DNA of 64,000 nucleotides from Octopus vulgaris (Eukaryota): positions 86,180,001 through 86,244,000 of the forward strand of contig OX597820.1 of NCBI GenBank assembly GCA_951406725.2. The letters are read 5' to 3'. The notes below the pieces were generated by a model. It had not been told where the DNA came from, searched no databases, and saw nothing but the letters and a program-made list of their open reading frames with translations. Below, piece after piece: positions 266 to 50,770 of the stretch. Position numbers and translations under genes: made by a program. Within the stretch, counting starts at the first letter, position 1, and the number at the start of each line of letters is the position of its first letter.

Positions 266-1319
266 ATATATGTACGTACCTACCTCTACATGTCTATATA
301 CATGCATATATGGATACAGGACACCAAAACAAAACGTCGAACACAATGAGAAACGAAAACATAAACACAAAACCAAGGAAATGGTTGTTTTAAAAAAATG
401 TCCATTTCCTTGGTTTTGCGTTTATGTTTTCGTTTCTCATTGTGTTCGACGTTTTTTGTGTCCTGTACCCATATATGCATGTATATATACATGTAGAGGT
501 AGGTACGTACATATATGTATGTATATATGCATATGTTTTATTAATTTATTAATTTATTATATGACGGAACGCACGCATCCATTTCTAAGTAAGACTGTTC
601 TTAATATTAATAATGATACGCACTCTTAACCTTTGTCTCCCCTCCCTTTCTCAGCCTTCATTCTTCTGGCTTTCCTTTTCTTCTACCTTACTGTCTCTCC
701 CTCTCTCTCTCTCATTCTTCATTCTTTTCTCTACAACCATTCCCTTTTTTCTCTCCGTTTCTCTTACTCCTCCTCCTCCCTCCCGTCGCGGTCACGTGAT
801 GAGATGGCTATTTCTGTCTTTCTTCGCCTGGCCTCCTTCAAGTAGATACGGTAAAATATGTTGCTCTCTGCCGTTCTCAAACAATAGCGTTCGTAAAAAT
901 TTTTTATCTCGTTTCCCTTAACAGCCCTTCTTGTTTGTGTTGCTGTTATTCTCCGTGTCCTGTCTTTTACTGTTTATATTTTGTACTGTCGTTACTGACG
1001 GTTTTTGTTACCATTTTTATCCCTCCGCAAAAAATCTCAAATTTTATTTAATTTGATTTTTGCGGGAAGGAAATTTTCATTGAAGTCATGTATCGCCTTG
1101 ACCTTCGAAACGTGGAGTAGATGAAATTAAGGCGACTGAAGAAGGGGAACTTTCCTTGTTTTGTATGTCCTGTACTCTATGTTTTCGTTGTTTTAAAAAA
1201 ATGTCCATTTCCTTGGTTTTGTGTTTATGTTTTCGTTTCTCATTGTGTTCGACGTTTTTTCGGTGTCCTGTACCCACATATATGTATGTATATATGCATA
1301 TGTTTTATTTATTTATTAA

Positions 1320-1321
<2 letters not shown>
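266..1321 (+). mobile_element. Penelope-like non-autonomous unit: direct terminal repeats (384-553, 1187-1321) plus inverted copy (266-384)
   Basis: Direct and inverted copies of TGTCCATTTCCTTGGTTTTG..GTGTCCTGTACCCA are visible; direct-plus-inverted pLTR layout is typical of PLEs. Confidence 0.6.
1087..1147 (+). ncRNA. Candidate hammerhead ribozyme with non-canonical strand order
   Basis: GTA, GAAAC and CTGAAGA are each flanked by helices that pair in the hammerhead register (see findings). Confidence 0.4.
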
Positions 1322-1351
<30 letters not shown>

Positions 1352-3764: not shown

Positions 3765-4085
3765 CTTTTAACTGTAGCTTATTTCAGACATTTGAGTGCG
3801 GCTATGCTGGAGCATCACCCTGAAAGGTTTTACTCGAACAACTCCACGCCAGGACTTAGTTTTTTAAGCCTGGTACACATTTTATTCGTCACATTCGTTA
3901 ACACACCAAGCGGTAACAGTGGACACACACACACATAGATATGTATTCGACGGGTTTCTTTCAGTTTCCCTCTACCAAATCTGATCACAAGGCTTTAGTT
4001 GGCCTGAGGCTATAGTAGAAGACATCTATCCAAGGTACCATGCAGAGGGACGAACCCGGAACCATGTGGTTGGGAAGCAAACTTG
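3765..4085 (-). mobile_element. SINE family A, diverged
   Basis: ATGCTGGAGCA..GAACCATGTGGTTGGGAAGCAAACTT. Confidence 0.75.
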
Positions 4086-20575: not shown

Positions 20576-20883
20576 CTATATATATATATATATATACATA
20601 TAAAAGTAAATAAATGGTACAACGAAGTACCGATATTTACTGGAAAATAGCGATCGTAATAAATACAACGCTATTGTATAGCTTCACTGCGTATATACTA
20701 GCAAAGACGTGTGTGTGTGTGCAACAAACATGAAAAAATTTGTCTTACTTCTAGGAAGAACATCTGAAAAATGGAAAACCTAGAAACGGATAATGCAGGA
20801 CCGATTTCAGACTCTTCATATACGTTTGACAACGTAGATTTGATTTGTCCTCATCAGCTATATGCAGCTGATTATGCATAGAA

Positions 20884-21270
20884 GGCGCAGGAGTGGCTGT
20901 GTGGTAAGTAGCTTGCTAACCAACCACACGGTTGCGGGTTCAGTCCCACTGCGTGGCATCTTGGGCAAGTGTCTTCTGCTATAGCCCCGGGCCGACCAAT
21001 GCCTTGTGAGTGGATTTGGTAGACGGAAACTGAAAGAAGCCTGTCGTATATATGTATATATATATATATATATGTTTGTATGTATGTGTGTGTTTGTGTG
21101 TCTGTCCCCCTAGCATTGCTTGACAACCGATGCTGGTGTGTTTACGTCCCCGTCACTTAGCGGTTCGGCAAAAAGAGACCGATAGAATAAGTACTAAAAG
21201 GTGGTGCTCCAGCATGGCCGCAATCAAATGACTGAAACAAGTAAAAGAGAAAAGAGTAAAAGAAAGAGAG
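20884..21270 (+). mobile_element. SINE family A, near full length, young
   Basis: Complete head, internal microsatellite, tail ACTGAAACAAGTAAAAGAG repeats. Confidence 0.92.
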
Positions 21271-22785: not shown

Positions 22786-22834
<49 letters not shown>

Positions 22835-22835
<1 letters not shown>

Positions 22836-22950
22836 ATGAGCTTCTTTCAGTTTCCGTCTACCAAATCCACTCACAAGGCTTTGGTCGGCCCGAGGCTACA
22901 GTAGAAGACACTTGCCCAAGGTGCCACGCAGAGGGAGCGAACCCAGAACC
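22835..22950 (-). mobile_element. SINE family A fragment
   Basis: CTTCTTTCAGTTTCCGTCTACCAAATCCACTCACAAGG. Confidence 0.8.
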
Positions 22951-23380
22951 ACTATTTTCCCTGAAAGTTGTTTTGTTTTATATTTACTATGGATTGCTCG
23001 AAGCTAACTTTCTTCCTACACCTCGATCCCTGGATCTTGTGTGTGTGTGTGTGTGTGTGTCTACCTGTGTGTATGTGAGTGTGAGTCCGAGCATACACAC
23101 ACACACACATTTATATATATATTAAAGAGATAAATAGATTTAGATATATCCGCATGCCTGTATGTCGTTGCATTTGTTTCGATCACCACCCGACAACCAG
23201 TGGTGGTTTGTTTACTTCTCTGTTACTTATGCCTTCGGCAAAAGGAGCCTGATATAATGATGATCAAGCTTTTAAAAAGTAACGGGCCCATTCGTCCGTC
23301 CAAAATGTTGAAGGCAGTAACCCATCATTGCCATGCTCCAAAGACGAAACAAGGGATTGACATTTGTACGTATATGTGCT

Positions 23381-40859: not shown

Positions 40860-41782
40860 CGACATACATATATATGTGTGTGTGTGTGTGTGTGTGCATT
40901 ACCGTTTCTGCGAACCTTCCTTCTTTCCTCTTCCTGACTACGAGCCATGCTCGAAACGTTACAAACCCTCTCTTTTTACCGTATTAAACTGAACGTCAAA
41001 CTAATACATCAACTGTGTACGTCTTCGGGCGTAGCTTTTGAACACCATGCATTGAGTCACACCATGCATTGAGTCACACGTAGGGATGTAAGTTTATAAA
41101 TGGGAAAGTTGTAAAACCTAGAACAATGAGTATTTGTGCGTGTGCGCATCACTGTTTGTGTGAGTGTGTGTGCGTATGTGAGTATGTGTGTGTGTGTTTA
41201 GAGATGAAGAGGTATACAAAAACGAAAATAGAGAAAAACCATCAATCCAATCGATAAATATTATATTTGTTTCTCCGTATTTTTATTCAGTCACTACTTT
41301 TTTTTAAATTCCTCACATCTACTCACAATAGAAAACGAATGACAACGCAAAATATTCCGATAGTCACAAAACACTTATGTAAAAACTTACTGCACACTTA
41401 ATCACTTGAAAAATAAAACATTTATTTCACCTAACCAGCAAAAAACTCTTCAACCAGTAACAGAAACGCCGTAGGACACGATGCTGCCTACTATCATAAT
41501 GGCGAATATAAAACAAAAACCAATATATTGACTGTTATTAACCTTCAGCTTCAACGAATTCATACATTTTTTTAAGCCGAACATCTCATTGCTACATAGT
41601 TGCGTTTGTGTGTGGGGGATGGAGCATACATACAAACTTATAAACTTATAACCCTATAACACATACACACGCGTGCACACGCATACAGTCGCATGCACAT
41701 GCACATACGCACACGCGCACGCACGCATGCACTTACGCGCACTTATTTATACACACCTATGTATAAATTATATACATATATA

Positions 41783-42185
41783 CAGGAGTGGCTGTGTGGT
41801 AAGTAGCTTGCTTACCAACCACATCGTTCCGGGTTCAGTCCCACTGCGTGGCACCTTCGGCAAGTGTCTTCTACAATAGCCTCGGGCCGACCAAAGCCTT
41901 GTGAGTGGATATGGTAGACGGAAACTGAAAGAAGCCCGTCGTATATATGTATGTATATATATATGTATGTGTATGTGTGTGTGTTTGTGTGTCTGTGTTT
42001 GTCCCCCTAGCATTGCTTGACAACCGATACTGGTGTGTTTATGTCCCCGTCACTTAGCGGCTCGGCAAAACAGACCGATAGAATAAATACTGAGCTTACA
42101 AAGAATAATTCCCCGGGTCGAGTTGCTCGATGAAAGGCGGTGCTCCAGCATGGCCGCAGTCAAATGACTGAAACAAGTAAAAGAG
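41783..42185 (+). mobile_element. SINE family A, full length
   Basis: Matches the 20884 copy. Confidence 0.92.
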
Positions 42186-49805: not shown

Positions 49806-50396
49806 ATATTACTAAATATATATTAGGCTTTCTAATGTGTTTATTCCTTGATTATTATACTTTTTGATAGAAGAATGAACAAATGTATACATGTAACTGT
49901 ATGTCAACACCGTTAAATAGCTTCTGCATTTATATCTCCTTATAGACGTATATACACATGGACATATGTATAATCCTTATGCATTCATCAGCATGTAACG
50001 GCCATGCTGTCACACACTAACTCAGTTTGCGAAACACTTGCATATTATGGAAGTTAATGTTGTTATAGATACAACTTAAAGTTCACATCTATAATCATGA
50101 TGTTAAATTTGAAGAGAGCCATATTAAGATAGGAAGGATCGGACCAACACAACAGCATACACCCTTGATTTCAACCTCCGTATTATTGAATGGCATGACA
50201 TTCACACACAGCTCGAACAATATCAAGCAGAACACCATTTGAATTTTCTAATGCATTGTTCAAAGAACGAATTATATCCTGACCTACCAGATGCAAAATA
50301 CACAATAAATCTCTGCATCATAAACATAGAATTCTCCATAATTTCGAGATGACGCGTACGATTTTCTTAGACCTTATCCGGATAAAACTAACAATA

Positions 50397-50770
50397 GGCG
50401 CAAGAGTGGCTGTGTGGTAAGTAGCTTGCTTACCAACCACATGGTTCCGGGTTCAGTCCCACTGCCTGGCACTTTGGTCAAGTGTCTTCTATTATAGCCT
50501 AGCGTCGACCAGAACCTTGTGAGTGGATTTGGTAGATGGAAACTGAAAGAAGCCCGTCGTATATATGTATATGTGTATATATATATATGTATATGTGTTT
50601 GTTTGTCAGTGTTTGTCCCCCAAACATCGCTTGACAACAGATGCTGGTGTGTTTACGTCCCGTAACATAGCGGTTCGGCAAAATAATCTGATAGAATAAG
50701 TACTAGGCTTACAAAGAATAAGTCCCGGGGTCGATTTGCTCGACTAAAGGCGGTGCTCCAGGATGGCCAC
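50397..50770 (+). mobile_element. SINE family A
   Basis: Matches the 41783 copy. Confidence 0.9.

Follow-up and report, generated by a model that had tools for sequence, protein, structure and literature searches.

Can a hammerhead ribozyme be built from core strands that follow one another in an order outside that of types I–III? The question is raised by a locus in the window analysed here, a stretch of 64,000 nucleotides (64 kb) from the genome of Octopus vulgaris, in which the strand with the NUH triplet (block S) is followed by the GAAA strand (block G) and then by the CUGANGA strand (block C). The original prediction took this arrangement for a hammerhead without described precedent, to be explained either by a crossed fold or by an assembly of two molecules. 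A precedent does exist: the S–G–C order is already known as type SGC, which Eckert, Friedrich, Weinberg and Weinberg discovered in 2023 and showed to be active in vitro (PMC10085705). They reported 583 SGC sequences from metatranscriptomes and two unique CSG sequences from soil DNA, none of them in a known eukaryotic genome. Absent from that work are the opened block C of the octopus motif, its junction with two additional helices (P and Q), and a eukaryotic retrotransposon as host.

Core strands and their abundance

The strands of a complete hammerhead core can be read from the letters of the window, exactly where they had been predicted:

1087-91, plus strand: CATGT, stem III 5′ strand
1092, plus strand: A1092, which is N17
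1093-1101, plus strand: TCGCCTTGA, stem I side after GUA
1102-06, plus strand: CCTTC
1107-10, plus strand: GAAA
1110-14, plus strand: ACGTG
1131-35, plus strand: GGCGA
1136-42, plus strand: CTGAAGA
1143-47, plus strand: AGGGG

In hammerhead numbering, U16.1 falls on 1091, N17 on A1092, C11.1 on 1106, G12 on 1107, A15.1 on 1110 and C3–A9 on 1136–1142, and the elements C3-U4-G5-A6-N7-G8-A9, G12-A13-A14, A15.1-U16.1 and H17 are all present. The blocks have neither the circular order nor the nested three-way junction of types I–III, and Rfam models gave no match at the gathering threshold and no hammerhead among nine matches at E ≤ 10. A canonical type I fold by way of the hairpin after CTGAAGA was rejected, as this hairpin is followed by GTTT and not by GAAA. 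The single-strand fold of 1075–1165 is unremarkable (z −0.47), as is expected of a pseudoknot.

The strand set is far beyond chance. Exact patterns with GAAA before CUGANGA, searched in the 2.8-Gb genome, gave 3627 matches versus 1, 1975 versus 3 and 554 versus 0 in reversed-pattern controls, a pooled count of about 6,150 versus 4. The prediction was right about a core in the order NUH, GAAA and CUGANGA and about its pseudoknotted nature. At the scale of the window, which holds a single copy of the motif and no second (partner) motif, an S–G–C descriptor with 4-bp stems I and III matched three times in 150 Markov controls, both strands included, and the same descriptor with an upstream stem II required matched none. 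The core is constant except for N7 in 27 aligned representatives, which were chosen with the core in the search pattern; block S was absent from the search patterns, and the triplet is GTA, GTT or GTC in 57 of 60 CCTTC-type copies.

Helices and layout

The motif extends over 1020–1147 and is larger than the 1087–1147 first delimited, which missed helices P and Q and the 5′ strand of stem II, all upstream:

1020–1024, plus strand: helix P 5′ strand, with its partner at 1143–1147 directly after A9; 93% of cells paired, found by RNAalifold unaided
1025–1065, plus strand: hairpin Q, between the 5′ strands of P and stem II with 0-nt junctions; 3 of 5 basal pairs compensated
1066–1070, plus strand: stem II 5′ strand GAAGG (G10.1–10.5), detached from CUGANGA; 5/5 Watson–Crick in 51/60 copies
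1075–1081, plus strand: stem III distal extension, 5′ strand, with its partner at 1120–1126 (constrained folding)
1086–1092, plus strand: stem III 5′ strand and GUA triplet (letters), with cleavage predicted after A1092 by analogy
1093–1099, plus strand: stem I 5′ strand, with 5 bp conserved and up to 7–9 in family A; 4 of 5 pairs compensated
1102–1115, plus strand: block G, with the stem II 3′ strand CCTTC, G12-A13-A14 (1107–1109) and the stem III 3′ strand from A15.1 (1110)
1120–1126, plus strand: stem III distal extension, 3′ strand (constrained folding)
1129–1142, plus strand: stem I 3′ strand and C3-U4-G5-A6-N7-G8-A9 (1136–1142)
1143–1147, plus strand: helix P 3′ strand, formerly read as a stem II strand (pair counts, RNAalifold)

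Judging by sequence and covariation, it is very probable that the order of elements is P 5′ strand, Q, stem II 5′ strand, stem III extension, S, G, return strand of the stem III extension, stem I 3′ strand with CUGANGA, and P 3′ strand. Stem III is a long hairpin with a total of 15–22 bp whose loop consists of blocks S and G, and the arms that complete stems I and II depart from the hairpin's distal end through linkers of 0–4 nt. With the stem II strand upstream and P following A9, the opening of the backbone falls between A9 and G10.1, where P and Q stand in place of the usual link, and such a layout lies outside the six published permutations. The transcript first proposed for a cleavage assay (1075–1160) omits the stem II 5′ strand, the P 5′ strand and Q, so that a negative result obtained with it refutes nothing.

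Within stem III, an internal loop GAAG/AGUA (1082–1085 and 1116–1119), which we take to resemble the loop E or sarcin–ricin motif, is kept in families A, B and C and not in D–F. A kink-turn at this loop was dropped, as the loop is unconserved across families. GAAA/TTTC, as an "interaction helix" on either side of block C, and AAGGA/TCCTT, as an outer helix, were likewise set aside, the strands of both being better explained as stem III extension and stem II.

Covariation and the identity of stem II

Pair counts were made on 18 representatives of families A–F; the nine Naiad-type rows among the 27 were excluded because MAFFT misaligned them, and were treated by block anchoring instead. The whole structure model has 96.4% of cells paired and 10 compensated pairs, as compared to 41–50% for slid controls, and of 500 shuffles none reached the percentage paired or the covariation score and four reached 10 compensated pairs, a comparison that relatedness can inflate. 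Both sides have changed in four of five stem I pairs and three of five stem III pairs, and the two stems covary across at least seven subfamilies. The predicted stem III, CATGT/ACGTG, is upheld by these counts; so is stem I, with a length of 5–7 bp across families in place of the 9 bp allowed for it. Among 111 distinct motif contexts at the loci covered, 90 have at least 8 of the 10 pairs in stems I and III, and with 31 of these 90 being family A-like, the contexts are not independent.

Stem II had been assigned to CTTC and the GGGG that follows CUGAAGA. Under that assignment the motif would be an ordinary type SGC hammerhead with an extra base after A9, stem II being GGGG/CUUC and the upstream helices being incidental. 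Four pairs, G–U included, can form in this way in 53 of 60 CCTTC-type copies, and the hammerheads of Penelope-like elements (PLEs) often carry an unpaired base at stem II's 5′ end (PMC4209133). This fold nevertheless appears very improbable: it has two G–U pairs and no compensated pair, its duplex energy is 0.0 versus −4.6 for the upstream stem II, and its G-run serves helix P. Its register mostly yields two Watson–Crick pairs in CCTTC-type copies and one in the GTGTC type (one of five in 25 of 30 Naiad-type copies), where the upstream strand fits instead, and by eye it also fails in coral, acanthocephalan and ostracod Naiads. Of the three helices for which covariation had been proposed as a check, stems I and III are confirmed by compensated pairs, and the CTTC/GGGG stem II, which is uncompensated, is probably wrong.

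At a fixed distance, the upstream stem II has all five pairs Watson–Crick in 51 of the 60 copies of CCTTC type; among the 30 of GTGTC type, 18 have five such pairs and a further 9 have four. Three double changes separate the two types (GAAGG/CCTTC to GACAC/GTGTC) with G10.1–C11.1 retained, such that, with stem II formed by the upstream strand, there are three covarying helices and G10.1–C11.1 closes stem II. RNAalifold without guidance predicts P, Q and the upstream stem II. The P–Q junction measures 0–1 nt in 44 of 65 CCTTC-type copies versus 1.5% in the control, and in 13 of 23 GTGTC-type copies versus 23%, which is weak in that type. On constrained folding, the stem III extension forms with differing sequences in 16 of 18 A–F representatives; for the Naiad type the figure is about 4 of 9. 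Families A–F show no variation in the upstream stem II and almost none in P, and hence the covariation of these two helices rests on the Naiad-type family and on the by-eye reading of supplementary sequences described below.

A nested fold of 1015–1152 favours Q (pair probability 0.97–1.0 in the fold of the window copy), a cis hairpin stem I and P in shortened form, and leaves 0.04 for stem III and 0 for stem II. A second GAAGG, at 1141–1145, overlaps G8–A9 and is lacking in the Naiad-type family; it could pair with CCTTC at 1102–1106, break the core and switch it off.

The host element

The motif had been expected in the pseudo-LTR (pLTR) of a PLE, and the surrounding sequence agrees:

266–398, minus strand: inverted 5′ copy of the pLTR end (266–516 self-inverted, 90.7%; 1188–1294 matches 398–295)
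384–1186, plus strand: 803-nt non-coding repeat unit, family A, Penelope-like, with 5′ truncations at scattered points in copies
1187–1322, plus strand: 3′ part of the pLTR, repeated at 384–492 and beyond (1187–1299 vs 384–492, 93.8%)

A (TA)n tract (about 1323–1353) ends the pLTR, and the insertion bears the marks of PLEs: a partial tandem of pLTRs, an inverted 5′ copy, 5′ truncation and a microsatellite target. The first look at the genome gave 2010 candidates for the family A unit, whose copies share a common 3′ end and have two motifs about 800 nt apart at three loci (L002, L003 and L005). Family B has a unit of about 832 nt with a GUC site and forms many tandem arrays of two to three or more units (L031–L060; L130–L132). 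It is very young: over 241 nt, each of the 40 hits scored has a rounded identity of 100%. Both families resemble non-LTR retrozymes in their tandem non-coding units with one hammerhead each, and the type I hammerhead of those elements is missing.

Besides A and B there are at least five further subfamilies, among which the GTGTC-type (Naiad-type) one agrees with the 3′ ends published for Naiad_Obim and Naiad_Ovul. Its motif lies downstream of degenerate reverse transcriptase (RT) frames on the same strand at L238 and 3 of 8 further loci, and at L243 a motif stands about 850 nt behind an RT frame whose RVT_1 match (E 2e-4) is below the curated cut-off. Neither Pfam nor BLAST matched the short, degenerate RT fragments. 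The CCTTC-type motif is found at none of eight Naiad-RT loci, of which three bear the GTGTC type, and neither these eight nor 20 GIY-YIG loci yielded an autonomous element ending in the CCTTC type; the 20 GIY-YIG loci led to a young family with RT and C-terminal endonuclease (EN), which has no similarity to A or B. As to the Naiad ORF, with an N-terminal GIY-YIG and a C-terminal RT, the unit in the window has no ORF and the N-terminal endonuclease was not recovered in the genome. With no autonomous CCTTC-type element at these loci, the assignment of family A to Naiads rests on ribozyme architecture and target preference, by which it is likely a non-autonomous Naiad-type PLE.

Predicted cleavage

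By analogy with known hammerheads, cleavage is predicted after A1092, and it is quite probable that the family truly cleaves; the SGC and CSG forms do so in vitro (Eckert 2023, PMC10085705). Insertion 5′ ends were counted on (TA)n-joined insertions (minus strand, with one entry per locus there). Just 3′ of the predicted site, a stretch of 11 nt holds 130 such ends (11.8 per nt); the 20 nt on the 5′ side of the site hold 46 (2.3 per nt), a difference in density of about fivefold. Another anchor gave 153 ends over 31 nt lying further 3′ (4.9 per nt). Truncations peak at +6 to +10 and not at +1; the peak is inflated in family B by TA microhomology, and could result from RT stalling at the structure. 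In family A, the best matches comprise about 23 truncations with four of them within 1088–1097, a weak enrichment. Contigs from RNA runs, which cannot show ends, have a dip at 1056–1103, which is also present in the largest run, one not marked as RNA.

A different reading of such data is that the structure derives from a hammerhead, no longer needs to cut, and is retained because it binds protein or serves the Naiad RT as a template signal. It could draw on reports that PLE hammerheads are often slow or protein-assisted (Cervera 2014 and Frangieh 2024), and that 8 of 9 Xenopus retrozyme dimers remained uncleaved in vitro (Li 2026, 10.64898/2026.07.22.740005). For a Poseidon element, Frangieh 2024 describes cleavage as dispensable for insertion in vitro, with no reads ending at the site. 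The octopus motif itself makes this reading improbable: the N-U-H rule is retained while H varies (A, U and C; 57/60 copies), N7 is free to vary, and the 5′ ends drop about fivefold at the predicted cut.

A pair of copies or a single molecule

The explanation considered best combines a full core in non-circular order, a stem II completed from upstream, a cut after A1092 and, likely, a reciprocal pair of copies, and taken jointly it stands slightly above an even chance. The domain-swapped dimer of two copies is modestly favoured in its own right, and given that cleavage occurs, a dimer is reasonably likely in preference to a monomer. In this model, P/Q and stem II/core would together make a perfect four-way junction by which A9 is kept on G10.1, and the arms of each copy would dock on the S–G loop of the other, reciprocally. 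Two pLTR copies in one tandem transcript could form the pair, so that cutting would need two copies and would release unit-length RNA, on which reverse transcription would start about 230 nt downstream and often stop near the 5′ end made by the cut.

The dimer is favoured because a stem III of 15–22 bp with 0–4-nt linkers points away from the place where its own arms would have to bind. The hammerhead crystal structure has stem III stacked beneath stem II and pointing away from the outer ends of stems I and II; the geometric argument uses general helix dimensions and not a model. The intermolecular assembly offered in the original prediction is a live option. The conflict between the direction of stem III and the far ends of stems I and II was also remarked by Eckert 2023 (PMC10085705). 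Moreover, the lengths of the helices flanking the stem III bulge vary without a ruler (by eye, 13+9 in corals and 10+5 in Naiad-4_Dst), which fits a symmetric dimer of any length, whereas a monomer needs a matched fold-back or melting.

The same split architecture would also be compatible with cutting by a monomer, if stem III folded back at its internal loop or if the extension melted and served as an off-switch. The internal loop of families A–F, 4–7 bp from the core and followed by a distal helix of 7–11 bp, would offer the place for such a fold-back, and without the extension the family A linkers would amount to 12–15 nt. It has to be noted that the SGC and CSG RNAs of Eckert 2023, among which there are very short linkers, cleaved while being transcribed and were taken to act in cis; the short-linker problem was flagged there, and the word "dimer" occurs in the main text only within references. 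The monomer is nonetheless considered rather unlikely, as compensatory change maintains the stem III extension, and as the coral (13 unbroken bp) and Naiad-4_Dst (10+5 bp with 1–2-nt linkers) forms, read by eye, leave no room to fold back.

Cervera 2014 (PMC4209133) describes an extra base at the A9/stem II link as frequent in animal PLE hammerheads, which are thought to act as dimers. The four-way junction would thus fall at a link that tolerates an extra base. The split order could have originated when the stem II strand of one CSG unit came to be used with the remaining block C of the next tandem unit, which is plausible.

Split and CSG layouts in other Naiads

Naiad consensi were taken from File S5 of Craig 2021 (PMC8557442), of which about 22 of 54 records were read by eye, with names assigned from the following headers and a table. 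In this part of the file, nine consensi from ctenophore to octopus have the split layout (Naiad_Amil, Aacu, Anas, Naiad-2_Movir, Plae, Naiad-4_Dst, Obim, Ovul and Bfor), and every helix differs in sequence among them. In Bfor, stem I has just 2 bp, and in Esco the split layout is degenerate. Among these consensi the upstream stem II takes five different sequences, GGCTCC/GGAGCC, GGGGA/TCCCC, GGCCCC/GGGGCC, GACGCC/GGCGTC and GACACC/GGTGTC; G10.1–C11.1 is constant in the consensi, and the downstream register of stem II fails there. Six of the consensi covered are of intact type CSG, four by header (Naiad-1_Nbra, Naiad-3_Nbra, Naiad_Hpol and Naiad_Smim) and two whose names, Naiad_Ppac and Naiad_Parc, follow only from their place in the file. 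Neither form was recognised in Naiad-3_Dst, Ppla, Omin, Adux and the hemichordate Naiads within the parts of their records covered.

Craig 2021 (PMC8557442) describes Naiads as proliferating without a canonical hammerhead and leaves "HHR_core/half_core" strings unexplained; seven of the eight "HHR_half_core" entries parse by eye as CSG or split forms in the text covered. A scrambled, split core would explain the reported absence of standard hammerheads in Naiads. Taken more broadly, it is a tentative proposal, falling just short of an even chance, that Naiads from ctenophores to cephalopods carry CSG together with a seventh, A9–G10.1-opened layout with a four-way junction, both as obligate domain-swapped dimers. 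It would settle the puzzle of the "half cores".

Relation to known hammerheads

With types SGC and CSG the octopus motif shares the full core, a 3–5-nt S–G linker inside the stem III hairpin, stems I and II as loop–loop pseudoknots, and a short link running from stem III's distal end to the far side of both other stems. The S, G, C order with a short S–G linker is that of type SGC. In contrast to these types, in which CUGANGA is joined to its stem II strand (1–2 nt after A9 in type SGC, where block C is uninterrupted), the strand here lies upstream of S, with P and Q inserted; stem III is 15–22 bp long, and there are thousands of copies in a retrotransposon. The interaction helix that closes block C on both sides in type SGC is lacking: here the strand 5′ of block C takes part in the stem III extension, by pairing upstream, and the one 3′ of it belongs to P.

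With Naiad PLEs (PMC8557442), the window family shares the pLTR, partial tandems, inverted 5′ copy, 5′ truncation and (TA)n targets, and it differs from them in having neither an ORF nor an identified autonomous partner. With the type I hammerheads of PLE pLTRs and non-LTR retrozymes (PMC4209133; Li 2026), it has in common one motif per pLTR unit, non-autonomous tandems, a proposed requirement for two copies and an insertion tolerated at stem II's 5′ end. Those have the canonical C–G–S order and dimerise through a stem III that is short and palindromic, whereas the octopus motif has a long stem III and its dimer would arise by a swap of the stem I and II arms. A search confined to type I hammerheads is presented in Li 2026 (bioRxiv 10.64898/2026.07.22.740005), and neighbouring literature comprises PMC13725137, Perreault 2011 and PMC6962438. 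No publication linking Naiads with permuted hammerheads, or describing a core opened at A9–G10.1, was found in a search that covered mainly journals open without subscription.

If the dimer model holds, the RNA would cut only when two pLTRs are transcribed, which would offer a direct test of whether PLE ribozymes count pLTR copies, and slow published SGC and CSG ribozymes with unexplained short linkers may also be dimers, a structural answer to the short-linker problem of Eckert 2023. Non-circularly permuted RNAs would pass from environmental sequences into animal genomes, with thousands of copies, and the published assumption that CUGANGA is inseparable from its stem II strand would be overturned. 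Hammerhead halves that dock loop to arm would also be a useful scaffold for engineering.

Other repeats

The octopus genome also holds a young Penelope-like family with a 781-aa frame of RT and C-terminal GIY-YIG in many intact copies (L193:406–4087, L194, L195 and L196). An upstream frame of 359–479 aa in this family has no Pfam match, and the hammerhead patterns matched nothing at its element ends. Fragments near L124, L130 and L247 look like mariner-type transposase. In the window, a short interspersed repeat of about 270 nt stands on both sides of the element (1–274 and 1319–1523), with further copies at 20883–21155, 41773–42052, 50394–50661, 22788–22951 and 3923–4080.
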